Source of the DNA: Dehalococcoidia bacterium
GTDB taxonomy: Bacteria; Chloroflexota; Dehalococcoidia; E44-bin15
Direction: 5' to 3'
Assembly (NCBI GenBank): GCA_041649635.1
Contig: JBAZMV010000007.1
Span: 10,900 to 74,899, forward strand
Length of the DNA: 64,000 nt
Position numbers and translations under genes: made by a program. The notes under the pieces are model-generated. The model saw only the letters and a list, made by a program, of their open reading frames with translations, was not told the DNA's origin and ran no database searches. This document shows, one piece after another, positions 4,331-62,562 of this stretch (positions are counted from its first letter, which is position 1; each line of letters opens with the position of its first letter).

Positions 4331-5026
4331 ATGGCCACGAACAAGATAATAAGTACTGCTAAGAAAGAAGGTCGGACCGCTCTCACGGAGATCGAAGCGA
4401 AAAAACTCCTCACCGAAGCCGGAATATCCTGCACGGATATAAAGCTGGCCAAGACCGCCAAAGAGGCAGTCACTGAGGCCAAAAAAATGGGGTACCCCGT
4501 GGCTCTTAAGATAGTCTCTCCACAGATATTACATAAAACGGACGTCGGCGGCGTGAAACTCAACCTTAATAACGAAGGGGAAGTAAGCAAAGCCTTCGAC
4601 GAGATTGTCAAATCCGCCAAGAAGCACAAGCCTAAGGCCAAGATAGACGGCGTCTCGGTTCAGCCAATGGCGAAGCCGGGCATAGAGGTCATCATCGGAA
4701 TGAGCAAGGATCAGCAGTTCGGTCCCGTCCTCATGTTCGGGCTGGGCGGCATACTGGTTGAAGTGCTCAAGGATGTGTCTTTTAGGATCGTTCCGCTGAC
4801 GAAGCGCGACGCCAGGGAAATGATAAAGGAAATAAAGGGCTACCCCATCCTGCAGGGCTACCGCGGACATGAGCCCGCCAACATAGAGATGCTTGAGGAT
4901 ATCCTGCTCAAAGTCTCCGAATTTGTTGAGAAGCTGCCCGACATTAAGGAACTCGATATCAACCCCATATTCGCCTACAAAGACGGCGCGCTGGCCCTCG
5001 ACGCCCGCGTTATCCTCGAATCCTGA
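4331..5026 (+). CDS. ADP-forming acetyl/acyl-CoA synthetase, beta (ATP-grasp) subunit
   Basis: 231 aa. ATP-grasp pattern (E.EAK.LL...GI, GYPVALKIVSP.ILHKTDVGGV, INP). Immediately followed by the CoA-binding/ligase alpha subunit. Confidence 0.8.
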   Translation: MATNKIISTAKKEGRTALTEIEAKKLLTEAGISCTDIKLAKTAKEAVTEAKKMGYPVALKIVSPQILHKTDVGGVKLNLNNEGEVSKAFDEIVKSAKKHKPKAKIDGVSVQPMAKPGIEVIIGMSKDQQFGPVLMFGLGGILVEVLKDVSFRIVPLTKRDAREMIKEIKGYPILQGYRGHEPANIEMLEDILLKVSEFVEKLPDIKELDINPIFAYKDGALALDARVILES

Positions 5027-5035
5027 GGTAACGAT

Positions 5036-6457
5036 TTGGGAGATGCCATAAAGCGACTCGACCGGGCGTTCAACCCCCGCTCGGTAGCGGTGATCGGCGA
5101 CAAGATGGCTCTGGGCTATATGTGGCTCAAGTCCATGTCACACTTACAGGGCAGGCTGTACTCGGTACAGATCGATGAAAGGGAATTCCCCGGCATCGCT
5201 TCGCTAGGCATCAAGAACTACCTCAAACTAAGCGACATACAAGACGAAATCGACTACGCCGTAATCGCCGTGCCCAACACGGTAACGCCCAGGATTATCC
5301 GCGACTGCATCGACAAGAACGTCGGCGCGGCCTCGCTTTTCACCTCGGGCTTCGCCGAATCCGGCACCGAAGATGGGCGCAGGCTCCAGGATTCGATAGC
5401 GAAAATCGCACGCGACGCCGGCTTCAACCTGATAGGCCCGAACTGCATGGGCATATATAACCCGCGCCTCGGGGTAAGGCATTCCATCGATCAAATATAC
5501 GGACGCGGCGGCAACGTGGCCTTCATATCCCAGAGCGGAACACACGCCACCTTCTTCTCCCTCGTCGGCCCGCAGAACGGCATACATATATCGAAATCTG
5601 TGAGCTACGGCAACGCCGCGGTGCTGGACTCCACCGACTACCTGGAATATTTCGGCAACGACATAGAAACTGACCTCATCGGCATATATATAGAAGGCGT
5701 GAACGACGGCAGGAGATTCTTCTCCATTTTGAAGGATATAGCCCGACGCAAGCCAGTGGTCATCTGGAAGGGTGGCGTCAGCGACGAGGGAGGCAGAGCT
5801 ACAGCCTCGCACACGTCTTCCATGGCGGGTTCGCCGGCGATATGGGACGCACTCATCAGACAATGCGGCGCTATAAAAGCCGATAACCTTAACGAAGTAA
5901 TCGACGCGATCAAGCTGCTGCTGCACTCCAAACCGGTCGCCGGAGACAGGGTAGGCCTGGCAGCGATGACGGGCGGCCAGTCAGTGGTAATCACCGATGC
6001 CTTCACCAGGGAAGGTTTTAAGGTTCCATTGCTCAGCGAAGCTTCATACAGGAAGTTCGACGCTTTCTTCCAGACGCTTGGCGCAAGCTACCGCAACCCG
6101 CTCGATATCAGCCTCAACTTCCCGCATCTCGACCGGATTATCAAGTCTCTCGATGTGCTCAGCGAGGACGAGAACATCGACACCGTCGTACTCGAGATAT
6201 CCGTACCGTTTATGAAAGACCTGTCGTGGATAAATACGAACCTGTTCGACACTATGATCAAAGCGGTGTCGGATTTCAAGAAACGCTGCGCCAAGTCCTT
6301 TATCACGATACTGGTTCCGGCCCACGCCGAGCAGGAAGCGCTGGAGGTAAAAAAGAAGCTGGTAGCCCAGGATATCCCATGCTTCGCAAGCTTCGAGAGC
6401 GGGGCCAGAGCGCTGCGAAAAGCGGCCGATTTCTACAGCGACAAATCTTCGTCGTAG
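5036..6457 (+). CDS. ADP-forming acetyl/acyl-CoA synthetase, alpha (CoA-binding + CoA-ligase) subunit
   Basis: 473 aa with a TTG start and GAGG upstream. It has the PRSVAVIGD CoA-binding Rossmann, GPNCMG, and SQSGT (phospho-His loop region). Confidence 0.8.
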   Translation: MGDAIKRLDRAFNPRSVAVIGDKMALGYMWLKSMSHLQGRLYSVQIDEREFPGIASLGIKNYLKLSDIQDEIDYAVIAVPNTVTPRIIRDCIDKNVGAASLFTSGFAESGTEDGRRLQDSIAKIARDAGFNLIGPNCMGIYNPRLGVRHSIDQIYGRGGNVAFISQSGTHATFFSLVGPQNGIHISKSVSYGNAAVLDSTDYLEYFGNDIETDLIGIYIEGVNDGRRFFSILKDIARRKPVVIWKGGVSDEGGRATASHTSSMAGSPAIWDALIRQCGAIKADNLNEVIDAIKLLLHSKPVAGDRVGLAAMTGGQSVVITDAFTREGFKVPLLSEASYRKFDAFFQTLGASYRNPLDISLNFPHLDRIIKSLDVLSEDENIDTVVLEISVPFMKDLSWINTNLFDTMIKAVSDFKKRCAKSFITILVPAHAEQEALEVKKKLVAQDIPCFASFESGARALRKAADFYSDKSSS

Positions 6458-6566
6458 GGACACGGCGTGCCGTGCCCTCCCCACCCATGGATTCCGGCTT
6501 CCGCCGGAATGACGGCAGATGCTACATGCAACCGTCCAGTCGTAGGGGCGAGGTGCTCTCGCCCTC
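6457..6566. repeat. cluster of three REP-like hairpins
   Basis: Three hairpins: cacggc-gt-gccgtg (6461-6474); attccggc-ttcc-gccggaat (6491-6510, which on the minus strand reads GTCATTCCGGCGGAAGCCGGAAT); and cGTAGGGGCGAG-gtgct-CTCGCCC (6541-6564). Intergenic. The track ORFs across this region are translation artefacts. Confidence 0.6.
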
Positions 6567-6684
6567 AAATAAGAAATGACCGCTCCCACCAATAGTCCGC
6601 AACCTCTGCCCTTCCGAACGTAAAACAGTTGCGATTCGGCTCCTGTCTATGTTAAGATATAAGCACCATAAAGGAGGGATTTGC

Positions 6685-8106
6685 ATGGTAGGAATAACGT
6701 CTTTCGGTGCATATGTCCCCATCTACCGTCTCAATAGAGAAATCCTGGCCCAGGTCTGGGGAGGAAAAGGTAAAGGGGAAAAAGCAGTCGCAAACGCCGA
6801 TGAAGACAGCTTGACATTAGGCGTAGAGGCTGCAAGGGATTGCTTAAAGGGCTTCGACAAGAGCAAGGTCGACGCCCTTTATTTTGCCACGACAACGGCA
6901 CCCTACAAAGAGAAGCAGTCCGCCAGCATAATAGCTGCGGCCTGCGATCTCAGGGAGGAAATCCGCACTGTCGATATGACCGATTCTTTGCGGTCAGGGA
7001 CAGTCGCCATAATGATGGCATTAGATGCCGTCAAGGCCGGATCGGCAAGGACAGCCCTCGTGGTTGTAGCCGATACCAGGCTCGCTCCGCCGGACACGCT
7101 CTACGAATCTATCTTCGGAGACGGTGCGGCTGCGTTCCTTATCGGCAACGATAATGTGGTTGTCGAAATCGAGGGGATCAGCTCCACAACCGCCCCGTTC
7201 GTAGACTTCTGGAGGCTGGAGGACGACAAGATCATACGATGGTGGGAAGAACGTCTTTGCCGCGAGATGGGCTACGTTCCTTATATGAGCAACGCCATCG
7301 ACGCAGTCTTTAAGACAGCAAAGGTTGAGGTAAAGGACATCTCCAAAGCGGTGATCTCATCGCCGGACAAATCAATGCAGGGAGATATAGTAAAGAAATT
7401 TAAATTCGACCCCAAGGCGCAGGTGCAGGACCTGATGTACGACAACATCGGCCACACCGGATGCGCGCAGGTGCCCATGATGCTCGTCGCGGCACTGCAG
7501 AACGCCAAGGCCGGGGATAAGATACTCGCCGCCAACTATGCCGACGGTGCCGATGCCATGGTATTCAAAGTAACTGACAAGATAAGCAAGATGGCCGACC
7601 GCAGGGGTATTAAAGGCTATTTAAAATCCAGGGTCGCGTTACCCAACTACGGTAAGTATATGCACTTCCGCGACCTCATGGAATGGGAACACGACCTGTT
7701 CATGGAACGCAGAATGGCTCTGGCCGAGGTTTGGCGCCATCGCAACTTCTACTTCCGCTTCTACGGAGTGAAGTGCGGCAAGTGCGGACACATCATCGTC
7801 CCGGCGCCCAACACCTGCATCTACTGCCAAGCCGACGAGAAGTACTTCGAAGAGATACCTCTGGCCGATAAGAGAGGCTCGCTGGTTACATTCAGTCTGG
7901 ATATTCGATCGAGAGCCATTGATCCACCGAACGTGCTGGCCGCGGTCAATTTCCACGGAGGAGGCCGCTTCTTCAGCCAGATGACCGACCGTGACCCGGA
8001 CAACCTTAAGGTCGGCATGGAAATGGAACTCACCTTCCGCAGAATTCACGACGCGCTTCATATCCACAACTACTTCTGGAAGTGCCGGCCGGTGAGAGGG
8101 GAGTAA
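6685..8106 (+). CDS. HMG-CoA-synthase-like (thiolase-fold) protein fused to a C-terminal DUF35 zinc-ribbon/OB-fold domain
   Basis: The N-terminus MVGITSFGAYVPIYRL and ATTTAPYKEKQ blocks resemble HMGCS/KAS-III. The C-terminus has CGKCGH..(x11)..CIYC and an OB-fold-like tail. The ATG at 6685 has AAGGAGG 6-7 nt upstream. The position expected for the nucleophilic Cys reads SLRSGT. Confidence 0.75.
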   Translation: MVGITSFGAYVPIYRLNREILAQVWGGKGKGEKAVANADEDSLTLGVEAARDCLKGFDKSKVDALYFATTTAPYKEKQSASIIAAACDLREEIRTVDMTDSLRSGTVAIMMALDAVKAGSARTALVVVADTRLAPPDTLYESIFGDGAAAFLIGNDNVVVEIEGISSTTAPFVDFWRLEDDKIIRWWEERLCREMGYVPYMSNAIDAVFKTAKVEVKDISKAVISSPDKSMQGDIVKKFKFDPKAQVQDLMYDNIGHTGCAQVPMMLVAALQNAKAGDKILAANYADGADAMVFKVTDKISKMADRRGIKGYLKSRVALPNYGKYMHFRDLMEWEHDLFMERRMALAEVWRHRNFYFRFYGVKCGKCGHIIVPAPNTCIYCQADEKYFEEIPLADKRGSLVTFSLDIRSRAIDPPNVLAAVNFHGGGRFFSQMTDRDPDNLKVGMEMELTFRRIHDALHIHNYFWKCRPVRGE

Positions 8107-8117
8107 AGGAGCGCAAA

Positions 8118-9329
8118 ATGAGAGAAAGCATTAAAGATAAAGTATCAATTATTGGAACGGGCTGCACCAAATTCGCAGAGCGCTGGGATGCCGATGTAGA
8201 AGACCTTATCAAAGAGGCCGTCGACGAGGCGCTGGCCGATGCCGGTGTAGAGCTCAAAGACATACAGGCGGGATGGGTCGGAACCGGACGCGGTTCGCAG
8301 CAGGTGCCCATGGGACCCCCAAGCGCCATAATTGCCACCTCATCGCTGCAGACGCAGTATATTCCGTTCACGCGCGTAGAGAACCTGTGCTGCGCCGGAC
8401 AGGAGGCGGTCAGAGCCGCGGCATTCGGCATCGCATCTAAGAGTTACGACCTTGTGCTTGCTATCGGCGTTGAGAAGCTGAAGGACACCGGGTACGGCGG
8501 ACTGGGAGAGATGTTCCCCGGCCCCTGGCAGCCGGTATATGGCGCTCTCGGCACGCCTCCGGGCAGGTACGCCATGGCGGCTACCGCCTACTTTTCCAAG
8601 TACGGTCTTGATCCTCAGGAGGGTAAGAGGCTGCTGGCGGAGATCTCGGTAAAGAGCCACTACTACGGAAAACGCAACCCTAAGGCTCACCTGCAACGTG
8701 AAATAACGGTAGAAGAAGCGATAAACGCCCCGATGATCTGCTGGCCGCTGGGACTTTACGACTGCTGCGGCGTGACCGACGGCGCGTCGGCTGCGGTGCT
8801 GGTGCCTTCCTCAGAGGCCAAGGCCTATCGCGACGACTACGTCAATATCAAGGCATTCTCCATAGCCTGCGGACCGGGCTGGCTTAAAGAGGATGAGAGA
8901 TATGACTTCACCTACTGGAAGGAAACCCAGGAGGGAGCCAAGGCGGCTTATGCCGAGGCCGGGATCAAGGACCCGCGCAAGGAGCTGAGCCTGGTGGAGC
9001 TGCATGACTGCTTCTCCATCGCAGAGCTCATCGCCTGCGAGTCCATGTTCCTCTGCGAACCGGGCCACTTCAGAGAAGAGTTCACCGAGAAGCGCGCATA
9101 CTACCACGACGGCGAGATGCCGGTGGACGTCAGTGGCGGGCTGAAATCATTCGGTCATCCCATCGGAGCCAGCGGAGCGCGTGAGATCGAAGAGTGCGTG
9201 AAACAGCTTCAGGGCAAGGTGCAGGAACCTTCACGTCAGATAAAGAACTTCGAGTTAGGTTTAGCACATAACCAGGGCGGACATCCGGGACGCTTCGTGC
9301 CGGGCATTTGCATAGTCGGCCGTCCATAG
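8118..9329 (+). CDS. SCP-x/archaeal-type thiolase-like protein (nucleophilic Cys present)
   Basis: It has IIGTGCTKF, VENLCCAGQEA (active-site Cys region), ELHDCFS, and GGLKSFGHPIGASG. Start chosen at MRESIKD, 12 nt after the upstream stop. Confidence 0.8.
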   Translation: MRESIKDKVSIIGTGCTKFAERWDADVEDLIKEAVDEALADAGVELKDIQAGWVGTGRGSQQVPMGPPSAIIATSSLQTQYIPFTRVENLCCAGQEAVRAAAFGIASKSYDLVLAIGVEKLKDTGYGGLGEMFPGPWQPVYGALGTPPGRYAMAATAYFSKYGLDPQEGKRLLAEISVKSHYYGKRNPKAHLQREITVEEAINAPMICWPLGLYDCCGVTDGASAAVLVPSSEAKAYRDDYVNIKAFSIACGPGWLKEDERYDFTYWKETQEGAKAAYAEAGIKDPRKELSLVELHDCFSIAELIACESMFLCEPGHFREEFTEKRAYYHDGEMPVDVSGGLKSFGHPIGASGAREIEECVKQLQGKVQEPSRQIKNFELGLAHNQGGHPGRFVPGICIVGRP

Positions 9330-9378
9330 CTTTAGCAATAGTTTGCTGCATCATTAGAAACATTACAGGAGGTTAAGG

Positions 9379-10779
9379 ATGAAGAAGGTTCGAGTAGGGG
9401 CGGGGTCATCGGGTTGGCCCGACTATAAGGACGGCGCCCTCGATGTAGCTCAGAATGGTGATATAGATTACATAGGCTTCGACCATCTGGCCGAGTTGAC
9501 CATGGCCATTATGCAGAACCAGTACAAGAAGGATCCCAAGCGAGGCTATATACCTGAAGTTGCACCACTAATGAAAAAACTGCTGCCCATCTGGAAGTCC
9601 AAGGACAAGCATTTCAAGATGGTCTCAAACGGCGGCGGCGCCAACCCGCCGGAGTGCGCCAATCAGGTGCTGCAAATCGTCAAGGACCTTGACCTTGGCG
9701 GGATGAAGATCGGCGTCATCACCGGCGATACTATTCCTCTGGAGAAACTGGATACGCTTGCGAAGGGTGGCTGGAAGTTCAAGAACCTCGATACAGGAGA
9801 GGTCGGATTGGACAAGGTGCGCGATAAACTGCTCGCCGCCTACGTCTATGTAGGGGCGGACAAGGTTATCGAAGCCTTCGATCAGGGCGCGAACCTTGTC
9901 ATAGGCGGACGCCTGTCGGACAACTCGCTGTTCATCGGTCCTTTCATGCACGGACTGGGATGGAAGTTCGACGACGATCACTGGGACAGGATCGGCTCCG
10001 GCGTCACCGTCGGACACATCATCGAGTGCTCAAGCTGGAGCGCGGGCACTTGCTCCAACCTATGGGAGGAGATAGAGTACCCCAAGGGCAACCCGGGATT
10101 CCCCATCGTCGAGATGTACGAGAACGGCGACTGCTACGTGACTAAGACAAAGACATCCGGCGGCATGATAAAGGTACTCACCGCGATGGAGCATCTTGTT
10201 TATGAGGTGCACGATCCCCACAACTACATCATGCCCGACGGCATATCGGATATTACCGCTATAAATATTGCACAAGTAGAGAAGGACAAGATCAAGATAA
10301 CCCGGGCAGGAGAGGCTCCCCGCGGCAAAGCGCGGCCCGAGAACCTCAAGCTGTGCGTGGCCTATAACGACGGGTTCATCGCCGAGGAGATCACGGTCAT
10401 CAGCGGGCCCAAAGTGTTCAAGATGGCGGACAAGGCGCATGACTTCGTAATGAAGCGCATGGATTACCTCGGATTGAAACCGAGAGAGGTACTATGGTCA
10501 CTCATCGGCTGGGATTCACTCACCGGACCCGCCTCCAAGCCGCGCCCCGACCTGGAGCATGAGCCGCCCGAGCTGGGTATACGAATCGCCATCAAGTGCG
10601 ACACCAAGGAACAGGCGCGCGAATGCCGCACCGAGCTGGGACATATGTGCTGGGCATCGACCGGAGTGGGCACAGGCTTCACCAGCCCGCCCGACATCCG
10701 CCCCATTTTCGCCCTATGGCCTACGCTTATACCCAGGGAAGAAGTGCCGCTGAAGCTGGACATGGTGGAGGTTAAATAA
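9379..10779 (+). CDS. AtuA-like acyclic terpene utilisation family protein (DUF1446)
   Basis: 466 aa. The N-terminal VGAGSSGW..D, the FDHLAELTMAI block, and the size and architecture match my memory of DUF1446/AtuA. TAATG coupling to the next ORF, which is the usual small partner. Confidence 0.65.
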   Translation: MKKVRVGAGSSGWPDYKDGALDVAQNGDIDYIGFDHLAELTMAIMQNQYKKDPKRGYIPEVAPLMKKLLPIWKSKDKHFKMVSNGGGANPPECANQVLQIVKDLDLGGMKIGVITGDTIPLEKLDTLAKGGWKFKNLDTGEVGLDKVRDKLLAAYVYVGADKVIEAFDQGANLVIGGRLSDNSLFIGPFMHGLGWKFDDDHWDRIGSGVTVGHIIECSSWSAGTCSNLWEEIEYPKGNPGFPIVEMYENGDCYVTKTKTSGGMIKVLTAMEHLVYEVHDPHNYIMPDGISDITAINIAQVEKDKIKITRAGEAPRGKARPENLKLCVAYNDGFIAEEITVISGPKVFKMADKAHDFVMKRMDYLGLKPREVLWSLIGWDSLTGPASKPRPDLEHEPPELGIRIAIKCDTKEQARECRTELGHMCWASTGVGTGFTSPPDIRPIFALWPTLIPREEVPLKLDMVEVK

Positions 10780-11162
10780 TGGCTAAGAAGAAGATTAAGC
10801 TGATGGACTTTTGCTGGTATCGCTCCGGCGACAAGGGCGATATAGCTAATATAGGACTCATAGCCAAGACACAGAAGGGATACGAGGTCATAAAGAAGGA
10901 AGTAACGCCGGAAAGGATCAAGGCGCACTTCAAGGACTGGTGCAAGGGCGATGTCATCATCTACCCGATGGATAACTTCTGCGCCCTTGAGATCAACATG
11001 TTCGAATCCCTCGGCGGCGGCGCTACAAAGACGCTCAGGCTGGATCAGACAGGGAAGGCCATGTGCGTCGGGCTGGCGCGCATGGAAGTAGAAGTAGAAG
11101 AGAGCGACATCAAGGCTTTGACGGGCCCTCCGTACGACACGATGGCCAATCCCGAAGCATAA
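10779..11162 (+). CDS. AtuA-associated small protein (DUF4387-like)
   Basis: 127 aa with a 1-nt overlap with the AtuA-like gene. The YRSGDKGD motif is typical of the small partner found next to DUF1446 genes. Confidence 0.55.
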   Translation: MAKKKIKLMDFCWYRSGDKGDIANIGLIAKTQKGYEVIKKEVTPERIKAHFKDWCKGDVIIYPMDNFCALEINMFESLGGGATKTLRLDQTGKAMCVGLARMEVEVEESDIKALTGPPYDTMANPEA

Positions 11163-11176
11163 TCTAGGAGAGTTTT

Positions 11177-12004
11177 ATGCCTTTAACAGGGCCGGACGTC
11201 CTTCTGGTTGAGAAGAAGGGCCACATAACGATAATTACGATCAATCGACCTGAGCGCAGGAACTCCATGAATCTTGACCTGTACGATTTGCTGGACAAGA
11301 CATGGAAGGAATTCAGCGAGGACGATAACGCGTTCGTAGCCATACTGACCGCGGCCAACGATCCGGCCATCGAGGCGGGCAAGCAGGCCTTCTGCTCCGG
11401 CATGGATATGAAGGACCAAGCGGAGCGGGTGGCCAAGGACCCCGCTTACGACATAGTGAAGTTACGCCCGGGGGTTGTCGACGGAACGTACGGCACCCCC
11501 TTCGGGCACAACGTTACCAAGCCGGTCATCGGCGCGATTAACGGCGTGGCCACGGCCGGCGGCTTCCAGTTCAGCATGATGTGCGACCTTAAGGTGGCCG
11601 CCGATACGGCGCGCTTCGGCACGGGCGAGGTCAAGGTGGGTCGCGGCACACCGTGGGCGGTCCCGCTACTCTGGCAGATGCCGCTCCCTATCGCCTTTGA
11701 GATACTCCTCACCGGCAACCTGATACCGGCTAAGCGCCTGTACGACGTCGGCTGGATCAACCGCGTAGTGCCGCTGGACCAGCTGATGCCGACTGCGATG
11801 GAGCTGGCCGAGACGCTGGCGGAGAACGCCCCGCTCTCGGTGCGATGTGCCAAGGAAGCGATGTACAAAGCCATGGACGTCGGGCGCAAAGCCGGGATCG
11901 ATGCGGCCAAGATAATTTACGAGAAGGTTTACAGCAGCGAGGATGCAAAAGAGGGGCCTCGCGCTTTCGCGGAGAAGAGAAAGCCGGTCTGGAAGGGCCG
12001 GTAG
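11177..12004 (+). CDS. enoyl-CoA hydratase/isomerase (crotonase) family protein
   Basis: 275 aa. It has ITINRPERRN, the oxyanion-hole region AINGVATAGGFQFSMMCDL, and the EG.RAF.EKR.P C-terminus. Confidence 0.88.
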   Translation: MPLTGPDVLLVEKKGHITIITINRPERRNSMNLDLYDLLDKTWKEFSEDDNAFVAILTAANDPAIEAGKQAFCSGMDMKDQAERVAKDPAYDIVKLRPGVVDGTYGTPFGHNVTKPVIGAINGVATAGGFQFSMMCDLKVAADTARFGTGEVKVGRGTPWAVPLLWQMPLPIAFEILLTGNLIPAKRLYDVGWINRVVPLDQLMPTAMELAETLAENAPLSVRCAKEAMYKAMDVGRKAGIDAAKIIYEKVYSSEDAKEGPRAFAEKRKPVWKGR

Positions 12005-12044
12005 CAAATACTATATTTACCCCGATTGAAGGGAAGGAGGATGC

Positions 12045-13190
12045 ATGGATTTTAGTTTCACAGAAGAACAAGAAATGTGGCGCACTATGATGATGGACTT
12101 CACCGAGAAGGAAGCCGGACGGGAATATACCCGCATGTGCGACCAGGAAAAGCACTACCCGCAAGAGCTGTGGGAGGCCGGTAACAAAGAGGGATTCCTC
12201 GGATTGCTCATTCCTAAAGAGTGGGGCGGCATGGGCTCCGGCGCCATTATGTACGCCATATTCATGGAGTGCCTGGCGAAATACAGCTACGAGATGGCAT
12301 CGCTGTTCAGCGTCCCCATGTTCTGCGCCATGAACCTAGTGGAGCACGGCACAAAGGAGCAGCAGGATCAATACCTGCCGCCATTCGTCAAGGGCGAGCA
12401 GAGGTTTTCCGTAGCGATAACCGAGCCCGAGGCCGGCTCCGATGCCTCAGCCGTTGCATGTCAGGCTGATGATAAGGGCGACCACTTCGTACTCAATGGC
12501 CAAAAACAGTTCTCCACCGCGGCGCACCTGCCAGGCAACATCGTCTTCATGGCAGTGAAGACCGATAAGAACGCCAAGCCCGCCCGAAACGGCATCAGCG
12601 TGCTGCTGGTACCCAATGACGCCCCGGGCATAGAAGTAAAAAGATTGCCTCTAATCGTCAGGCGTGCTATCGGCACCTGCTCTATATTCTGCGGCGACGC
12701 CAAGATTCCTAAGAAGAATCTTGTTGGCGAGTTAAATGGAGGATGGCAAGTTCTCGTCGGCCACCTGGAGCTTGAGCGTCTTGCCGGCGCCGCGCCCAAC
12801 GTAGGCGAGGCGCAGTGCTGTCTCGACGATGCCATCAACTACGCCAAGGAGCGTGTGCAGTTCGGCAAACCCATCTGCAAGAACCAGGGTATCAGCCATA
12901 TGCTGGCCGATCTCCAGGCCCAGCTCGACGCCGTGCGCCTGCTCACCTACCGCGCGGCGTGGATGATAGACCAGAAGATACCATGCCGCAAAGAGGTTTC
13001 CATGGCCAAGATGATGGCCGGAGAGGTTTTCTATGCGGTGACAACGGCATCGATGCAGACCTTCGGCGGATACTCATTCCTTCCCGAGTCTGACATCGAG
13101 CGCCACTGGAGGCTGTCTAAGATGTTCTGCATCGGCGGCGGCACAACCCAGATCCAGCGCATGATCATCGCCCGCGACCTGGGCATGTAA
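12045..13190 (+). CDS. acyl-CoA dehydrogenase
   Basis: 381 aa. It has AITEPEAGSD, QFGKPI, and the catalytic-base region ...IGGGTTQIQRMIIAR. Confidence 0.9.
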   Translation: MDFSFTEEQEMWRTMMMDFTEKEAGREYTRMCDQEKHYPQELWEAGNKEGFLGLLIPKEWGGMGSGAIMYAIFMECLAKYSYEMASLFSVPMFCAMNLVEHGTKEQQDQYLPPFVKGEQRFSVAITEPEAGSDASAVACQADDKGDHFVLNGQKQFSTAAHLPGNIVFMAVKTDKNAKPARNGISVLLVPNDAPGIEVKRLPLIVRRAIGTCSIFCGDAKIPKKNLVGELNGGWQVLVGHLELERLAGAAPNVGEAQCCLDDAINYAKERVQFGKPICKNQGISHMLADLQAQLDAVRLLTYRAAWMIDQKIPCRKEVSMAKMMAGEVFYAVTTASMQTFGGYSFLPESDIERHWRLSKMFCIGGGTTQIQRMIIARDLGM

Positions 13191-14539: not shown

Positions 14540-14568
14540 TTGATACCCCCACATTTGTATAGTACAAT
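14540..14568 (+). promoter_or_regulatory. sigma70-like promoter for katG
   Basis: TTGATA, then a 17-nt spacer, then TACAAT. It lies about 70 nt upstream of the katG ATG. Confidence 0.45.
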
Positions 14569-14607
14569 ACAAGCCCTACAGGAGCATTTAGTACATAAAG
14601 ACGATAG

Positions 14608-16833
<2,226 letters not shown>

Positions 16834-16925
16834 TCGCAATAAATCCGAAGATATTAGGACAGCGTCGTTATCGTTATAAGTAGAATATAATGGCACTAGA
16901 ACAAAAATAACGAAAGGAGGAGATT

Positions 16926-17624
16926 ATGGCAGAAAAAGACGGCTGTGTCAAACCTGTGAAGGGGCCGCTCCTGCCCTCAGCCGAATCCACAAGTGGAGCG
17001 CAAGCAGCACCGGTGAAGGAGGTTAACAAGATGCAGGTACGTGTTGGCGGAGAAGCCATTGATTTCGAGGCCAGCGCCTTTATCGAGGGCAAGGGCTTCA
17101 AACCGGTCAAACTCTCCGATTATAAGGGCAAGTGGATAATCCTCTGTTTCTACCCGGGAGATTTCACCTTTGTTTGACCGACGGAACTGGCGGCGGTCGC
17201 CGCCATGTACAAGGAGCTTAAGAAGCTCGATGTAGAAGTCCTTTCGATGAGCACGGACAGCCGCTTCGTGCACAAGATGTGGCAGGAGGAGGAGCTGTCG
17301 AAGATGGTTAAGGGCGGCGTGCCCTTCCCCATGCTGACTGATGCGGGCGGCAGAGTCGGCACAATATACGGGGTCTACGATGAGTCCGCCGGTGTGAATA
17401 TCAGGGGCCGTTTCATAATAGATCCGGATTTTAAGATAAAGGCCATGGAGGTGCTCACGCCCGAGGTGGGACGCAATCCCAAGGAGCAGATAAGGCAGAT
17501 AAAAGCGTTTCAGCACGTGCGCGCCACCGGCGAGGTGATGCCTTCAGGATGGGAGCCCGGTCAGAAGACTCTGAAACCGGGGCCGGACCTGGTAGGTAAG
17601 GTCTGGAAGGTGTGGAAACCCTAG
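16926..17624 (+). CDS. peroxiredoxin (AhpC/Prx1 type) with selenocysteine at the peroxidatic position (in-frame UGA at 17175-17177)
   Basis: Track ORFs 16926-17177 and 17205-17624 are in the same frame. Read-through gives [17 protein letters not shown]..., which matches the universal FTFVCPTE motif. An alternative start is the ATG at 17031 (MQVRVGG, GAAGGAGG upstream). The downstream half carries MSTDS.F.H..W and PSGWEPG. Confidence 0.8.
17175..17204 (+). promoter_or_regulatory. UGA (Sec) codon plus candidate bacterial SECIS hairpin
   Basis: The sequence is UGA ccgacggaac U GGCGGC-GGUC-GCCGCC A. The stem is 6-7 bp (17189-17204, extendable by one U-A pair). The G-rich apical loop begins 17 nt after the UGA. 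Confidence 0.6.
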
Positions 17625-17678
17625 TAAGCGAATCCGTTACGTCGTCGACGATGTAACGATTCATCTACAAACGATAGA

Positions 17679-17709
17679 GGGGCAGTTGTGCAAACTGCCC
17701 CTTCTTTTA
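17679..17709 (+). terminator. intrinsic terminator after the peroxiredoxin gene
   Basis: GGGGCAGTT-gtgca-AACTGCCCC followed by TTCTTTTAT. A second palindrome lies just upstream (cgttacgtcgtcgacgatgtaacg, about 17633-17660). Confidence 0.7.
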
Positions 17710-22116: not shown

Positions 22117-24318
22117 GTGGCAGAGAAAAAAATGAACTTGAAACTGGCAAAAGAACTGGGCCTTAGTGCTGATGAGTATAAGCAGATTCAGACGCTATTG
22201 GGTCGGAATCCCAACTATACGGAACTCGGCATGTTCTCTGCGATGTGGTCCGAGCATTGTTCATATAAGAATTCAATCAAGGTACTGAAGAAGCTCCCCA
22301 CCACCGGCAAGGGCGTATTTCTCACCGCAGGTGAAAACTCGGGCGGAGTATCTATCGACGACGATTATGCCGTGGTGTTCAAGGTTGAGTCTCATAATCA
22401 TCCCTCAGCGGTTGAACCTTATGAAGCCAGCGCCACGGGCGGAGGCGGATGCATACGGGATATCTTTACCGTCGGCGCCCGCCCACTGTTTCTTTTAAGT
22501 TCTCTGCGATTCGGCATGCTGAGCGATAAGCGAACTAAGTATCTGTTTAAGGAGATAGCCCGCGGTTTTACCGATTATGCCAACGCGGTCGACCTGCCCG
22601 CCATAGCAGGCGAGGTATATTTCGATCCATCGTACCAGGGAAATCCTCTGGTAAATGCTATGGTTGTCGGCCTGCTGAAGAAGGAAAACATCGTAAAAGC
22701 ACGAGCGTCAGGCATTGGCAATCTGGTTATCATCGCCGGCGGCCGTACCGGGCGGGACGGCGTCGAAGGAGCCAGCTTTGCATCATCGGGTCTGGATGAG
22801 AGCGCAAAAGAGAGGAAGGGCGCCGTAGCAATCGGTGACCCCAAGATAGGCAAGAAGATACGTGAGGCATGCCTTGAGATCGCCGAAAAGAAACTTGTCG
22901 TCGGCATGCAGGACATGGGTGCGGCAGGCATCGTATGTTCAACGGCTGAGACCGCTTATAAGGCAGGTACCGGCATTGAGATAGACATAGCGCTTGTCCC
23001 CCGCAAAGAAAAGGGAATGAATCCGTACGAGATCATGCTTTCCGAATCCCAGGAAAGAATGCTGCTCATCGTAGCGCCAAAGAAACTAAATGCTGTCAAG
23101 GCTGTTTTTAAAAAGTGGAACGTTGAGTTCAGTGTGATAGGCAAAGTGATAAAAGGCGGTGTCCTGAGAGTAAAAGAGGATGGCAAGGTTGTAGCTGAGG
23201 TGCCGGCCGAAGCCCTGGCCAACGGGCCCAGATACGACAGGGAATCAAGCGAACCCAGGTACTTGAAACAAATCAGAACGCTGTCTCTATCTAAAATAAA
23301 GGAACCTAAGGACTACAATAAGACCCTCCTGACGCTGCTCTCTTCACCAACCCTAGCTTCCAAAAAATACATCGCAGAGAAGGTGGATCCAAAACTGACT
23401 TCGTCACTATGTGTAAAAGGCGGCAATGATGCCGGCGTCTACTACTGTAAGCAAATGAACAAGGCTATCGCGGCCACCATCGACTGCAATGGGCTATATT
23501 GTTACCTCGATCCCTTTATGGGTGCCCAGATCGCCGTCGCGGAAGCGTCTCGCAATCTCGTCTGCTGTGGAGCGCGGCCGCTGGCGGTGACGGATGGTTT
23601 GAATTTCGGCGACCCCTTTAATCCCGAGATTTACTGGCAATTTGTAAAGTCAGTAGAAGGCATCACCAAAGCCTGCAAGTATTTTGGACTGCCCGTCATT
23701 AGCGGCAATGTGAGCTTCAATAATGAAAATCCAAAAGGTGCCGTATATCCTACACCCGTCATCGGCATGGTAGGAATCGTCGACAATGTTAAGAACGTCA
23801 CCAGCAGCGATTTCAAGAAAGAGGGAGACGTAATTCTACTTATCGGTCGGAACAAGGAGGAAATCGGCGGGTCGCAATACCTCAGCATTATACATGATCT
23901 CCGGAAAGGCACGCCTCCGACCTTGGATTTGAACAGAGAAAAGAGTGCGCAGGATGCTGTGCTGGAAATAATCGGACAGCGTCTGGCATCCAGCGCACAT
24001 GATTGCTCCGACGGAGGACTGGCCGTTGCTTTGGCAGAATGCTGTATCCTTGGCGGAAACGGTGCCGTAATCACAATAAAGGACAAGATGCGAACCGACG
24101 CTCTTCTTTTCGGTGAATCGCAGTCCAGAATCGTTATCAGTACCGCCCGTAAGAATCAGGAGAAGATCAAAACTATATGCAAGAAGTTCCATGCACCATG
24201 CATTGCTATCGGAGAGGTCAAGGGAGACTCACTAGTTATCAACAACTCGATCAAGGTTAAAGTCGCAAGGCTTCAGGAGGCCCATGGCAAAGCAATACCT
24301 AAAGCAATCCAATCGTAG
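22117..24318 (+). CDS. purL: phosphoribosylformylglycinamidine synthase subunit PurL (FGAM synthase II)
   Basis: 733 aa. It has MWSEHCSYKNS, VESHNHPS and DMGAAG, with a duplicated AIR-synthase-like fold. GTG start with AAGGAG 8 nt upstream. Confidence 0.93.
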   Translation: MAEKKMNLKLAKELGLSADEYKQIQTLLGRNPNYTELGMFSAMWSEHCSYKNSIKVLKKLPTTGKGVFLTAGENSGGVSIDDDYAVVFKVESHNHPSAVEPYEASATGGGGCIRDIFTVGARPLFLLSSLRFGMLSDKRTKYLFKEIARGFTDYANAVDLPAIAGEVYFDPSYQGNPLVNAMVVGLLKKENIVKARASGIGNLVIIAGGRTGRDGVEGASFASSGLDESAKERKGAVAIGDPKIGKKIREACLEIAEKKLVVGMQDMGAAGIVCSTAETAYKAGTGIEIDIALVPRKEKGMNPYEIMLSESQERMLLIVAPKKLNAVKAVFKKWNVEFSVIGKVIKGGVLRVKEDGKVVAEVPAEALANGPRYDRESSEPRYLKQIRTLSLSKIKEPKDYNKTLLTLLSSPTLASKKYIAEKVDPKLTSSLCVKGGNDAGVYYCKQMNKAIAATIDCNGLYCYLDPFMGAQIAVAEASRNLVCCGARPLAVTDGLNFGDPFNPEIYWQFVKSVEGITKACKYFGLPVISGNVSFNNENPKGAVYPTPVIGMVGIVDNVKNVTSSDFKKEGDVILLIGRNKEEIGGSQYLSIIHDLRKGTPPTLDLNREKSAQDAVLEIIGQRLASSAHDCSDGGLAVALAECCILGGNGAVITIKDKMRTDALLFGESQSRIVISTARKNQEKIKTICKKFHAPCIAIGEVKGDSLVINNSIKVKVARLQEAHGKAIPKAIQS

Positions 24319-51930: not shown

Positions 51931-52602
51931 ATGACTGAAGTATCCTATCCCATCGCCTTTGGTGCGGGAATCGCGGCATTTTTCTCGCCATGCATTTTGC
52001 CTTTAGTGCCGATATACATCGCAAACATAGGCGGAGTGGTCTCTCTATCAGCGGAGACCAAAAGACGAGCCGTCTTCATCCATACGGTCGCCTTCGTCAT
52101 CGGTTTCTCCATAATCTACATCCTCATGGGAGCCTCTGTGGGGCTCTTCGGCATGTTCATCCCTAACGATATCCTGAGGATAGCGGGCGGCGTGCTATTG
52201 ATATTGTTTGGAATTTACCTGCTTGCTGCGATGAAGATACCGAGGCTTAATTTCGAAAAATCACTGAGCCGTCCTTTCTGGGGCAAAGTAGGATATATGC
52301 GCTCTGCACTGATGGGCGCTGTTTTCTCCGTCGGCATTGGTACCTGCGCATACGGCACGCTCGGTCTGATTCTGACCATGGCGGCAGTCGCGCAGACAGC
52401 GGCAAAGGGAGCGTTGCTCCTCACCGTATACTCGCTGGGGCTGGGGTTGCCCTTTATAATCGTAGGATTGGCTTTGGACAGAGCGAAGCCGGTGCTCAGG
52501 TGGTTCAGCCGGCACTCGGTATGGACTTCTATTGCAAGCAGTATACTACTGATTGTAATCGGCAGCCTGATGCTGGCCGATATCATTACATATTCTATCT
52601 AA
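51931..52602 (+). CDS. ccdA: cytochrome c biogenesis / thiol-disulfide electron transporter CcdA (DsbD family)
   Basis: 223 aa and polytopic. It has FFSPCILPLVP and a second conserved P-containing TM. Confidence 0.8.
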   Translation: MTEVSYPIAFGAGIAAFFSPCILPLVPIYIANIGGVVSLSAETKRRAVFIHTVAFVIGFSIIYILMGASVGLFGMFIPNDILRIAGGVLLILFGIYLLAAMKIPRLNFEKSLSRPFWGKVGYMRSALMGAVFSVGIGTCAYGTLGLILTMAAVAQTAAKGALLLTVYSLGLGLPFIIVGLALDRAKPVLRWFSRHSVWTSIASSILLIVIGSLMLADIITYSI

Positions 52603-52619
52603 AAGACGAAAGAGTTGTC

Positions 52620-53132
52620 ATGACTATAAAGAGATGCCGAATAAAATCAATCCTCATAATACTTGCGACGATAATACTGCTGGCAGGAATCGCTGGATGC
52701 GTAGTGCCGATTGGATCTAAGGTCGGCGATAAAGCACCGGACTTCACTTTATCTACGCTCGACGGCGGACAGATCAGGCTCGCCGACCTCAAAGGCAAGA
52801 CCGTCGTGCTTGTCTTCTGGACAACGGGATGCGGCGCCTGCATTTACCAGATGCCTTTTCTCGAGGAAGCACATGACGAATTGGGCAATGATGTCGAATT
52901 CGTCAACATCAACATCGGAGAGGACAGCTATCAGGTACAGGCAGTCATCGACTATTACGGTTTCAGCCTTCCCGTGGCGCTCGATAGCGATGAGATGGTA
53001 TCGACAGACTACAATATCATCTATACGCCGACAAATATCATCATCGACAAGTATGGAGTCATTCACTACGTCAGGAAAGGCGCTTTTACCAGCGGAACGG
53101 AAATTCTAAGTATATTGAACGCTATGGAATAG
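52620..53132 (+). CDS. TlpA/ResA-like membrane-anchored thioredoxin-fold thiol:disulfide oxidoreductase
   Basis: It has an N-terminal TM/lipobox-like segment (LLAGIAGC), a WTTGCGAC CxxC motif, and YTPT (cis-Pro region). Start chosen at MTIKRCR. Confidence 0.8.
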   Translation: MTIKRCRIKSILIILATIILLAGIAGCVVPIGSKVGDKAPDFTLSTLDGGQIRLADLKGKTVVLVFWTTGCGACIYQMPFLEEAHDELGNDVEFVNINIGEDSYQVQAVIDYYGFSLPVALDSDEMVSTDYNIIYTPTNIIIDKYGVIHYVRKGAFTSGTEILSILNAME

Positions 53133-54827: not shown

Positions 54828-57800
54828 ATGGCTAGAAGAAGTTGGACCACAAAACTGTCGCTGCTATTAATGATGGCAGTGATATTAAGCCTGATCATAC
54901 AGGTGTCAATACAGCATGTCTCGACACAAGCGGATTCTCCTGAAGTAACAGGCATCAACCTGCCCCCGGTTGTTTCCGCCAAGCATTCCAATCCTAAGAT
55001 GGATTCCGCCCTTTCGCAATTGGTCGAGGCTGCCGGGCAAGGGAAAGCTGCGCACTTCGCACAACAACACGGGTTATATATTGAGTCCAACAAAGTTAGG
55101 GTCATCCTTGAAAGTAAACCAGATAAAATTCAAGACGCTATCCTAGCCGCGCAAGCTGTCGGCGGCAATCTTGAAACCAGTTACCGCAATCTAATACAGG
55201 TCAGGGTCCCAATTACTGCTTTAAACGACATTGCTAAAAGCCCCTATATCGATTTTGTACAAAGTCCTCTTACGCCAACAATTACTGAAACAACCATAGA
55301 AAGTATGGGGCTCATCAACGCTACAGCATGGAACGGCGCAGGGTACGACGGCACCGGTATCAGTATAGGTGTGCTTGATATGGGCTTTAAGAACTACTCA
55401 ACGCTCTTGGGCACAGACCTCCCGTCATCAATTGCGGATACCTGGTGGTCTCCTACCATCGGATATAACGAAAGCGAACATGGCACAGCCTGCGCCGAGG
55501 TGATACATGATATCGCACCCAATGCCTCCCTTTATTTTGCCACCTGTAATACTTCCGTTGAATGGGGCAACGCGATAGATTGGTTCATCTCAAAAGACGT
55601 GGACATTATCTCATGTTCACTCATATGGCTCAACGGAGGACCAGGAGACGGTACAGGCACCATATGCGACGCTGTGTCCGATGCCGCTGATAACGGCATC
55701 CTCTGGGTTAACTCAGCAGGCAACTACGCTGAGGGCCATTGGATGGGAGAATGGAGCGATCCGGATAGCAGCCGTATGCATAACTTCAGTGTTAACGATG
55801 AAAGCAATGCTATTAATGTTGATTTAGACCTAAGCAGCACGATAAGACTTGGCCTGAGATGGAATGACTCATGGGATACATCTTCAAACGACTATGATCT
55901 AATTCTTTATAATTCCAGCCTTTCCATAGTCGCATCTTCAGAAAGACCCCAAGATGGATCTTCCTGGCCACCAATAGAAGAAATCAGTTATACTGCAACA
56001 TACTCTGGCACCTATCACATAGGAATATATAACTACTCCGCCGACGGCACATCCGAATTGCACCTTTTCAGCTTCAATCAAGACTTACAGTACCAGAACC
56101 CGGAATACAGCATACTTCAACCAGCGGATTCCCCCGACGCTATGACCGTTGGCGCTGTAAGATGGTCCACCCCTAATGCTATCGAATCTTGGAGTTCACA
56201 GGGACCTACGATGGACAATAGGATCAAGCCGGATATAGTCGCCCCGGATTGCATCAACACCGCCTCGTATGGCGCAGGCGGCTTCTGCGGCACCTCCGCA
56301 GCAGCCCCTCACGTAGCAGGAGCTGCCGCTCTCGTCAAACAGATGTACCCGCTCTATACATACACTGACCTGCAGAGCCACCTTGAGTTCTCCGCCGTCG
56401 AGCTTGGAGATGCGGGAAAGGACAACGTCTTCGGCAGCGGCAGGCTATACCTGGACGAGACGCCGCCTAATCCTGATACCACGATAGATCCTATACTGGA
56501 TTGCGTGAAAGAATTGAGCGCCATCAGCGGCAGCGCGTCATGTGAATACGGAACAATCAGTAATGTAGATCTACAGATAAACCGGAGCGACGACAGCTAC
56601 TTCTGGAACGGCAGCGACTGGCAAGAAGGCGAAATATGGATTGATACTACCCCTGTAGATGGAACGTTCGATGAAGCATCTGAATTGTGGAGAATAAACA
56701 GTGCCTCTTTGCCCGTATGGACTACCGGTAACATATACTATATTGCAGCCAGAGCTATCGACAATGAAAGCAATTATGATCTTACACCGGCACTGGAATC
56801 ATTCACAATCGGTGATATTGGCTGGGAAACAATGGAAATCGATATCGGTGACGACTTAATAGGAATATGGGGCAACTCCTCCTCTGACATATTCGTTATA
56901 GGGGGCAATAATGATAATACTAATGTCTTCGCACATTATGACGGAACAGAATGGGATGTTACCGGCAATACGTCAGGATATTCTCTCCGGGACATATGGG
57001 GCAGCTCAAGCTCAGATATCTTCGCTGTAGGCACGCTTGGCACCATACTGCATTACAACGGCAGTTCTTGGTCATCAATGGAAAGCAATACCTTAGACGA
57101 TTTATGGAGTGTCTGGGGAGACTCATCAACAGATGTCTATGCCGTTGGCGCCAACGGGACTATCTTGAATTATGATGGATTCTCCTGGACAAATATGACT
57201 AGCACCACAAATGACACACTGCAATGTATCTGGGGATCCAACTCATCGAATATTTATGCCGTCGGTTACACAAGTACATCTAAAGGCACGATTCTTCACT
57301 ATAACGGCTCATGGAACCATATGAGTATCGGAGATGTCCCACCCCTAGCCGGTGTGTGGGGTTTTGATCCCTCAGACATCTTCGCTGCCGGTTATGCCGG
57401 CACGCTTCTTCACTATAACGGTGCGTCGTGGAGCAGTATGAACAGCGGCACTGCCAACACACTGGGCCCACTCTGGTGCATAACAGGATCAAATGTTTTT
57501 ACAGGAGGAGTTGGCGGCACGATCATTTACTATAGGGACCTGAACTGGATACCGTCATACAGCGGCACAACAAACACGATAAATGCGATATGGGGCAACG
57601 TACGCGACGTGTATGCCGTTGGAGACAAGGGTACCATCCTTCATTACAACGCATACCCGGATAGAAGCGTATATCTGAGCGGGCCTCAATCAGTAACGGT
57701 GGGACAGAGTTTCAATATGACGGTCGGAATCAGTAGAATTCCTGACTTATATACAGGCCGATTCTCTATGGAGTATGACCCAGACATCATCAGAATTGTT

Positions 57801-60129: not shown

Positions 60130-60204
60130 TGGAGCGGGTGATGGGATTCGAACCCACGACTCTTTGCTTGGGAAGCAAATACTCTACCACTGAGTTACAC
60201 CCGC
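60130..60204 (-). tRNA. tRNA-Gly (anticodon CCC)
   Basis: The reverse complement folds as GCGGGTG-TA-ACTC..GAGT-A-TTTGC-TTCCCAA-GCAAA-GAGTC-GTGGG-TTCGAAT-CCCAT-CACCCGC-T-CCA. Confidence 0.88.
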
Positions 60205-60252
60205 GAAATTCGTATCTATTCTAGCCCGCAAAACCCTATCTGTAAAGAGAGG

Positions 60253-61275
60253 GTGCTTGCTTCGTCAAATTCCGGCACCGACATCGCCGGCCTGCTTGAA
60301 GGTTACCGGCTGTGCGCCGCCACCGAAGGGAAAAGCCCTAACTCCACGGCAATCGTTATCAACAGTATGAGATACCTCAACGACTTCCTCAGTTGCAGCG
60401 GCCTGAGCACCGACGTGACCGTAATAGGCACGCGGGAAATCAGGGCCTTCATCCTCTACCTGCAGCAGAAGGTATGCTTGAGCCATCACCCCTATAGCAA
60501 GCCGCAGCAGAGGGGTCTCTCCGGACATACCGTGAATACCTACATGAGGTCCATCCGGGCCTTCTGGTCCTGGCTCGTCGAGGAAGAGATCATCGAGCAA
60601 AATCCCTTCTCAAAACTTAAAATACCGAAGCCGCCCAGGAAGATCATAGCCACCTTCTCCCCGCACCAAATCGATTCCCTGTTAAGCGCCATGAACGGCT
60701 CGGCGGAGGGCTATCGCAATACGGTCATCGTCCTTACCTTGCTAGATACCGGCCTGCGCATAAACGAGCTGATAAATCTGAAAATTGGAAACGTCTGTAT
60801 TGAAGAAGGGCTGGTCAAGGTCCTGGGCAAGGGCAATAAGGAGAGGCTGGTACCCATCGGTAAGCAGATTCGCAAACTGCTATGGCGCTACATCCATCAA
60901 TATCGCCCCGAACCGGTTCTGCCTAAAATAGATAACCTATTTCTGACCCAGGACGGCAGGCCGCTGACCAAGAACCGCGTGGGTACTACAATGAAACGCT
61001 ACGGCGTCATAGCCGGGCTTAGCGGCGTCAGATGCTCCCCTCACACTTTGAGACATACCTTTGCCATTAATTTTCTTAGAAACGACGGCGATGTTTTCAG
61101 CCTGCAGAAGATATTGGGGCACTCATCACTTGAGATGACCAGGCGCTATTGCGAGTTGGCTAATGTGGATATTAAGAAGGCTCATGCTACGGCCAGCCCC
61201 GTGGATAATCTCGCGATGGAAAGGAAACTGGCTGTAGCCCGCGCTGCCAGGGACAGTAAAACTAAAAAGCGTTGA
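60253..61275 (+). CDS. tyrosine recombinase/integrase (XerC/D-like, SAM-like N-domain + catalytic domain), copy 1
   Basis: 340 aa with a GTG start 48 nt from the tRNA-Gly 5' end. It has the catalytic residue contexts GLRINEL (Arg), HTLRHTFA (H-x-x-R), LGHSS and RY. Confidence 0.85.
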   Translation: MLASSNSGTDIAGLLEGYRLCAATEGKSPNSTAIVINSMRYLNDFLSCSGLSTDVTVIGTREIRAFILYLQQKVCLSHHPYSKPQQRGLSGHTVNTYMRSIRAFWSWLVEEEIIEQNPFSKLKIPKPPRKIIATFSPHQIDSLLSAMNGSAEGYRNTVIVLTLLDTGLRINELINLKIGNVCIEEGLVKVLGKGNKERLVPIGKQIRKLLWRYIHQYRPEPVLPKIDNLFLTQDGRPLTKNRVGTTMKRYGVIAGLSGVRCSPHTLRHTFAINFLRNDGDVFSLQKILGHSSLEMTRRYCELANVDIKKAHATASPVDNLAMERKLAVARAARDSKTKKR

Positions 61276-61277
61276 GA

Positions 61278-62354: not shown

Positions 62355-62562
62355 AAAAACTTCCTTCTGAAAACTAAACAGAACCGGTAAAAACTGCCAC
62401 TATTGCAAATCTGTTTTATTCTAATAACAATCGTTTCTTTTGTCCAATAAGTGAGAATATAGGAGATATAGATAGCAAAGAAAACCGGGGCGATTAAGAT
62501 TCCATTCCCGCCTCAGATTAATAATCGGAAGGCTCTGAACAGTAAGACGGACGGTACAGCTA

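Follow-up and report, generated by a model that had tools for sequence, protein, structure and literature searches.

A predicted selenocysteine-containing peroxiredoxin gene, prxU, with an in-frame UGA and a SECIS-type hairpin on a Dehalococcoidia contig

Introduction

Peroxiredoxins (Prx) with a TxxU motif, in which U is selenocysteine (Sec), form an experimentally verified family of prokaryotic selenoproteins (PMC9312934, PMC13188914). Both sources trace the verification to the Eubacterium acidaminophilum protein PrxU, citing Soehling et al. 2001. In a survey of 2006 the family was the fifth most frequent among bacterial selenoproteins and was found mainly in anaerobes (PMC1794560), and it is prominent in marine metagenomes (PMC9312934). 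The Sec-containing Prx of Desulfococcus multivorans is annotated across two locus tags (PMC5109826), the same split that is encountered in the gene described here. This gene lies at positions 16926 to 17624 of a 64-kb stretch of DNA from a Dehalococcoidia bacterium (contig JBAZMV010000007.1 of assembly GCA_041649635.1), which was analysed as a whole and is referred to below as the window. On the evidence of its sequence and of its relatives, it is very probably a genuine prxU gene that encodes a selenoprotein and has a bacterial Sec insertion sequence (SECIS) of the canonical G-U-loop type. The gene is a member of an already known kind, the Sec-containing Prx, its TxxU motif and the type of SECIS all being established.

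Results

Gene structure and family membership

The structure of the gene is read directly from the DNA. Two open reading frames (ORFs), 16926 to 17177 and 17205 to 17624, share a common frame, with the TGA at 17175 to 17177 and 27 nucleotides between them, and this TGA is the sole internal stop in the frame from 16926 to 17624. The features of the reading frame are as follows:

16926 to 17624, + strand: prxU coding sequence of 232 codons, one of them for Sec, followed by the stop codon TAG at 17622 to 17624
16914 to 16922, + strand: Shine-Dalgarno-like AAGGAGGAG, 3 nucleotides 5' of the ATG at 16926, by direct reading
17175 to 17177, + strand: UGA, encoding Sec84 at the peroxidatic position of PxxxTxxU, from the frame and the alignment of homologues

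Read-through of the UGA yields P77-G-D-F-T81-F-V-U84 followed by PTE (PGDFTFV-U-PTE), and the UGA aligns with the peroxidatic Cys of solved AhpC and Prx2 structures. Public gene calls split the gene into products of 83 and 139 amino acids. A first-pass annotation of this DNA, made from the sequence alone, had described two ORFs in one frame separated by TGA plus 27 nucleotides, had placed the UGA at the position of the peroxidatic Cys, and had predicted that automated annotation would split the gene; the sequence, the alignment with solved structures and the public calls bear out the three statements. The Shine-Dalgarno-like AAGGAGGAG favours the upstream start at ATG 16926, which supports translation of the N-terminal arm.

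Against the NCBIfam equivalog NF040737 (peroxi_PrxU; curated cut-off, 270) the read-through protein reaches 374.8 bits, and the match runs end to end, with residues 5 to 231 placed on profile positions 2 to 230 of 233. The generic AhpC profile TIGR03137 gives 189.8 bits, which is below its own cut-off of 272. Pfam detects AhpC-TSA (6.3e-35), Redoxin and 1-cysPrx_C, the C-terminal Prx domain. Among solved structures, those of Amphibacillus AhpC (1WE0) and human Prx2 are the nearest, with E values from 3.5e-47 to 1e-44, and on this ground the protein is placed by sequence in the AhpC/Prx1 subfamily.

Conservation of the UGA among relatives

A scan of species-representative genomes gave more than 597 confirmed relatives, of which the best 80 (65 to 79% protein identity) were analysed as loci. 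The codon at the Sec84 position, observed directly in the DNA of the best 80 homologous loci, is TGA in 79 and TGC in one. These loci belong mostly to Anaerolineae and other Chloroflexota and also span Thermodesulfobacteriota, Acidobacteriota, Ignavibacteria, Actinomycetota, Armatimonadota and Krumholzibacteriia; the isolates Desulfacinum hydrothermale and Desulfothermobacter acidiphilus are among them. Judged from these alignments, the shared pattern of in-frame TGA is far beyond chance. The first-pass annotation had called Sec-containing Prx rare. This description does not hold, as the family has its own NCBIfam equivalog, more than 597 confirmed genome matches and a place among the commoner selenoprotein families (PMC9312934, PMC13188914, PMC1794560).

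Among the 120 closest database proteins the Sec column holds Trp in 73, Cys in 40 and C-terminal fragments of 139 amino acids in 4. An in-frame TGA is counted in 77 of these proteins, namely the 73 mistranslated as Trp and the 4 that are split. The DNA of one such "Trp" homologue (L087:192-896) reads TGA, which the gene caller had rendered with code 4. The Trp at the catalytic position in 73 of the 120 public homologues is a systematic mis-annotation of selenoprotein genes, which arose where callers applied code 4 to contigs of roughly 1 kb. Clustering at 90% identity groups 18 C-terminal products, each of exactly 139 residues, so that every one of them starts with the Met that follows the TGA; the corresponding cluster of the N-terminal product has 4 members, each of 83 residues.

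The SECIS hairpin

The sequence directly 3' of the UGA forms a hairpin within the coding sequence:

17188 to 17205, + strand: bacterial SECIS hairpin, with a 7-bp stem (17188 to 17194 paired with 17199 to 17205) and the apical loop GGUC at 17195 to 17198

The letters are GGCGGC at 17189 to 17194, GGTC at 17195 to 17198 and GCCGCC at 17199 to 17204, and an additional U-A pair between 17188 and 17205 brings the stem to 7 bp. A GC hairpin at 17189 to 17204 with its loop 17 nucleotides past the UGA had been reported in the first-pass annotation, and the sequence agrees. The spacing between UGA and loop, 17 nucleotides (17178 to 17194), is identical in all 81 aligned loci, and the 45 nucleotides from the UGA onward align across them without a gap. 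The 23-nucleotide hairpin of the window has a minimum free energy (MFE) of −14.1 kcal/mol; among the 81 homologous hairpins, 74 are at or below −7.5. The bSECIS model specifies a loop of 3 to 9 nucleotides, a stem of 4 to 16 bp, 16 to 37 nucleotides from UGA to loop and an MFE of at most −7.5, together with a G within the first two loop positions, a G or U next to it, and pairing of N1 with N2 (PMC13188914). With its 4-nucleotide loop GGUC, 7-bp stem, spacing of 17 nucleotides and −14.1 kcal/mol, the hairpin of the window falls within the model in every respect.

The covariation of the hairpin is likewise observed directly in the alignment. The pair formed by columns 18 and 27, both of which are synonymous third codon positions, is GC in 65 loci, AU in 13 and GU in 2, and is never unpaired. 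The loop-closing pair of columns 21 and 24, the first and last nucleotides of the loop, is GC in 41 loci and AU in 37, and columns 15 and 30 show four pair types. The covariation score of the alignment is 0.278 versus 0.153 after column shuffling (none of 500 shuffles reaches the observed value), and registers slid by 1 to 3 columns score at most 0.123. Across the 81 loci the loop reads GGUC in 42, AGUU in 37, and GGUU and AGUG in one each, so that every locus has the form N-G-U-N' with an invariant central G-U, and N and N' are complementary in 79.

Homologues with Cys at the catalytic position show what becomes of the hairpin. Four diverged true-Cys homologues (L083 to L086) keep 4 to 7 of 9 pairs, and two of them have lost the complementarity that closes the loop. 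The lone close homologue with TGC, L073 from a metagenome-assembled genome (MAG) of Acidobacteriota, has a complete SECIS-type hairpin (L073:3235-3279). By its sequence, this locus looks like a recent conversion of Sec to Cys with a "fossil" SECIS.

Alternative readings of the in-frame UGA

Several observations weigh against a functional Sec codon and SECIS. Four of the six G-C pairs of the stem are automatic from the codons GCN GCN GTN GCN GCN (Ala-Ala-Val-Ala-Ala); taken by itself, the stem thus counts for less than it seems to, and the weight is placed on the third-position pairs. The fold of 51 nucleotides has a z score of −1.6 relative to shuffles, and Rfam returns no SECIS match, either in the whole window at gathering thresholds or in 17120 to 17280 at E values up to 10. 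The only Rfam match in the latter region, isrJ on the opposite strand, was dismissed as chance. A Pfam scan of about 50 genes in the 64 kb did not find selA, selB or selD, and the only tRNAs in the window are tRNA-Asp and tRNA-Gly, with no tRNA-Sec. An AIRS-domain protein at 22117 to 24318 was considered as SelD and rejected, as it is PurL. There is also no second selenoprotein gene, since a scan of the 64 kb for frames split by TGA gave no candidate with a redox motif. Because the sel genes are absent from these 64 kb, Sec decoding in this organism is something that we infer.

These absences are what would be expected if prxU were intact in an organism that had lost the Sec insertion machinery, so that the UGA terminates translation and the gene is a silent relic. 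Against this, close variants at 87 to 94% identity have kept the TGA and the hairpin and their frame is intact downstream, which is unexpected for a relic, and the window is a small part of the genome, so that an absence there weighs little. Loss of the machinery is regarded as improbable.

The TGA could also be a Cys codon, TGC or TGT, that has mutated in a dead gene or has been misread in sequencing or assembly. A single base change from TGY to TGA would suffice, and such changes do occur, as L073 has TGC with the same hairpin. However, the TGA is present in all but one of the 80 diverged orthologues, in at least 18 close variants and in independent assemblies: the window matches an ENA metagenome contig (ERZ27247363 k141_2769638), and an identical stretch of 1391 bp that includes the TGA is found in a second, independent (Logan) assembly. 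Compared with homologues, the core preceding the UGA has a median identity of 74% and the part following it one of 77%, and therefore both halves of the gene are under the same purifying selection; in addition, compensatory changes keep the hairpin downstream. An error or a pseudogene is consequently very unlikely.

An alternative genetic code, in which TGA is read as Trp or Gly (code 4 or 25), would agree with the Trp that most of the closest database proteins carry in the Sec column, but this Trp is the gene-calling artefact of short contigs described above, and the DNA has TGA. Furthermore, TGA is an ordinary stop in the window, where it ends 10 of the 50 well-supported genes, among them the full-length katG. 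By established Prx chemistry, an enzyme with Trp or Gly as its peroxidatic residue would be inactive. Because TGA serves as a normal stop, reassignment to Trp or Gly is ruled out for practical purposes, and its probability is put at close to nil.

Two truly separate genes of 83 and 139 amino acids that form a split peroxiredoxin, as the two products of the public calls and the ATG that opens the second ORF at 17205 might suggest, are equally hard to credit, because the break falls inside the active-site motif and exactly at the catalytic residue, the 27-nucleotide gap keeps the frame and codes for the conserved start of a helix (PTELAAVAA), no ribosome-binding site precedes 17205, and the Cys-form homologues are single polypeptides.

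As the first-pass annotation had proposed, the gene is thus best read as that of a Sec-containing peroxiredoxin and not as a pseudogene; the family hidden Markov model, the conservation of the TGA, the covariation of the SECIS and the use of TGA as a normal stop elsewhere in the window all agree on this.

Resolving cysteine and recycling

Three codons of prxU bear on how the oxidised Sec could be recycled:

17538 to 17540, + strand: Met205, where typical 2-Cys Prx have the resolving Cys (GEV-C-P), from alignment to 1WE0 and 5IJT
16944 to 16946, + strand: Cys7, in the N-terminal motif DGCVKPxxGP, candidate alternative resolving residue, from conservation
17145 to 17147, + strand: Cys74 (ILCFYP), 10 residues before Sec in strand β3, from conservation and a homologue model

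The C-terminal motif GEVMPSGW aligns with GEVCPAKW and GEVCPAGW of solved AhpC and Prx2. It had been noted at the outset that EVMPSGW replaces the Cys motif, and in 1WE0 and 5IJT the residue opposite Met205 is indeed Cys. Of the 121 relatives, 102 have Thr in the resolving-Cys column, 6 have Met and 3 have Cys, and Thr, Met, Ala and Ile together account for 118. With Cys in only 3 of 121, the absence of the canonical resolving Cys is a trait of the family.

The window PrxU contains exactly two cysteines, Cys7 and Cys74, and both are conserved. An N-terminal extension of about 35 residues carries the motif of Cys7 at its tip. Position 7 is Cys in 60 of the 61 proteins that have the extension, and this Cys is present in about 77 of the 81 loci, and the motif DGCVKPxxGP is 71% identical across homologues, compared with 25% for the linker that follows it. 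Cys74 is found in 81 of 81 loci and in 108 of 121 proteins, in Sec and Cys forms alike, at a position where solved AhpC and Prx2 carry Val or Phe. In an AlphaFold model of a Cys-form homologue (75% identical), the core is predicted with confidence (mean predicted local distance difference test score, 83), residues 1 to 30 are of low confidence, the Cys at −10 lies in strand β3 and the peroxidatic residue starts the following helix.

The name "1-Sec Prx" had been given to this protein, in opposition to a pseudogene. While the second part of that statement stands, the label is not established, because two other cysteines, Cys7 and Cys74, are conserved and either could resolve. From sequence we infer that a flexibly tethered, conserved Cys fits the expectation for a substitute resolving residue. 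A tentative proposal, which we consider possible and rather doubtful, is that in the PrxU clade the C-terminal resolving Cys has been replaced by Cys7 of the N-terminal arm, which would move into the active site and form with Sec84 a Se-S bond that thioredoxin then reduces. Alternatively, the universally conserved Cys74 at −10 may be the resolving residue. The literature searched contained no description of an N-terminal-arm resolving mechanism or of roles for Cys7 or Cys74.

Genomic surroundings

The gene is flanked by a catalase-peroxidase gene on its 5' side and by a terminator-like element on its 3' side:

14638 to 16833, + strand: katG (catalase-peroxidase), PF00141 at 5.1e-74, 731 amino acids
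17677 to 17710, + strand: strong intrinsic-terminator-like element after prxU, an 11-bp stem (hairpin 17677 to 17703) followed by the CTTTTATT T tract

katG lies 92 nucleotides 5' of prxU on the same strand and is preceded by a promoter-like site at 14540 to 14568. No terminator-like site is found on the + strand between katG and prxU, and the two genes are possibly co-transcribed. Farther 3' of prxU are genes for a DUF1295 membrane protein, a hydrolase, a KDPG-type aldolase and an HMGL-like enzyme. Across the 80 loci neither katG nor any other gene, such as a reductase partner, is a conserved neighbour, and no neighbour exceeds 8 loci. Among the informative ones, the commonest is a Fur/PerR-like regulator (8 of 80 loci), which is also found beside the Cys form L083. 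The inverted repeat TTGTAT-N6-ATACAA (14555 to 14572) overlaps the −10 hexamer of the katG promoter-like site, and a second one, TTATA-N7-TATAA (16874 to 16890), lies in the spacer between katG and prxU. From their sequence, these AT-rich inverted repeats are possible candidates for operators of the Fur/PerR type.

The nearest named relatives of PurL are MAGs labelled Dehalococcoidia (82 to 86% identity), followed by Candidatus Omnitrophota at no more than 70%; the source organism is uncultured and has no close representative. A related strain has a PurL homologue (87%) and a C-terminal PrxU fragment (94%), and the longest contig for each of the two is 8364 bp (P0148 and P0070). If a single contig of 8364 bp holds both, the neighbourhood of prxU and purL is kept in the closest relatives.

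Other genes of the window encode molybdopterin cofactor synthesis, thiolase/OB-fold pairs and a 2-oxoacid:ferredoxin oxidoreductase. Two large clusters, at 4331 to 13190 and 24733 to 49112, contain genes for thiolase-like proteins, OB-fold/zinc-ribbon proteins (ChsH2/DUF35-type), family III coenzyme A (CoA)-transferases and AtuA, as well as enoyl-CoA hydratase, acyl-CoA dehydrogenase, aldehyde:ferredoxin oxidoreductase and flavin adenine dinucleotide (FAD) oxidoreductases. Their composition suggests the anaerobic degradation of an organic acid or of a hydrocarbon-derived substrate. Judged by its gene content, the window is that of an anaerobe.

A second protein with the AhpC-TSA/Redoxin fold is encoded at 52500 to 53132, next to a DsbD/CcdA-type membrane protein at 51931 to 52602, and has no in-frame TGA. 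The pair (51931 to 53132) looks like a thiol:disulfide oxidoreductase pair of the ResA/TlpA type; its two ORFs overlap by about 100 nucleotides, and the true start of the second is probably later. The ORF at 54828 to 60044 has 1738 residues with a subtilase (S8) domain, fibronectin type III and InlB B-repeat/Listeria-Bacteroides repeats, and its product is probably a large secreted or surface protease. A tRNA-Gly(CCC) at 60130 to 60204 on the − strand is directly followed by two tyrosine-recombinase genes of the phage integrase family (60253 to 61275 and 62563 to 63624), and the region from 60130 to 63624 probably forms the border of an integrated mobile element.

Discussion

The arrangement of the gene suggests how PrxU would be made and how it would work. 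SelB carrying Sec-tRNA(Sec) would bind the hairpin, with its 7-bp stem and GGUC loop, 11 nucleotides past UGA-84, and this binding would cause the UGA to be read as Sec and not as a stop. In the PxxxTxxU pocket, the selenolate of Sec84 would reduce H2O2 or organic hydroperoxides and become a selenenic acid. Because Met stands at the position of the canonical resolving Cys, recycling would proceed through another thiol, which may be Cys7 on the flexible arm, Cys74, or a thioredoxin-type reductant acting directly. Given its place directly behind katG, prxU would probably be part of the same peroxide-stress response.

This locus is a clean example of a selenoprotein gene that is misread by generic gene callers. 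The splitting of prxU and its mistranslation with Trp matter for the quality of annotation and for counts of selenoproteins in metagenomes. The point of biochemical interest is the recycling of oxidised Sec without a canonical resolving Cys, and the roles of Cys7 and Cys74 in it.

The closest described protein is PrxU of Eubacterium (Peptoclostridium) acidaminophilum (Soehling et al. 2001, Biol Chem 382:979). Both have a fold of the AhpC/Prx1 type, a UGA-encoded Sec at the peroxidatic position of PxxxTxxU and no Cys at the canonical C-terminal resolving position, and the window protein passes the PrxU equivalog cut-off end to end. E. acidaminophilum PrxU is of a shorter kind, with 203 residues. 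Unlike this kind, the window protein and most of its close relatives carry the N-terminal extension of about 35 residues with its conserved Cys (DGCVKPxxGP); shorter PrxU relatives of about 200 residues do not have it. The source organism also differs, in that it is an uncultured bacterium and not a relative of Clostridium.

With the typical 2-Cys enzymes of the AhpC/Prx1-4 group (1WE0, 1QMV, 5IJT), the window protein shares the active-site motif and the C-terminal GEVxPxxW segment. It departs from them in having Sec in place of the peroxidatic Cys, Met205 in place of the resolving Cys, Cys in place of Val or Phe at −10, and the N-terminal arm. The hairpin resembles the SECIS of Escherichia coli fdhF in its location within the coding sequence directly 3' of the UGA and in an apical loop that contains G-U, here of the 4-nucleotide form N-G-U-N'. 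In contrast to the fdhF type, its stem is short (7 bp) and is made mainly of Ala and Val codons, and the sequence is otherwise unrelated.

Other Sec-containing Prx-like families have in common with the window protein the Pfam AhpC-TSA fold and a Sec within a redox motif (PMC9312934, PMC13188914). Unlike the Prx-like thiol:disulfide oxidoreductases (UxxC/UxxU), the UGC Prx-like proteins and Prx-SUH (CxxU), the protein of the window has its Sec in TxxU with no adjacent Cys, and it belongs to the "Prx (TxxU)" family and not to the UxxC/UxxU, UGC or CxxU families.

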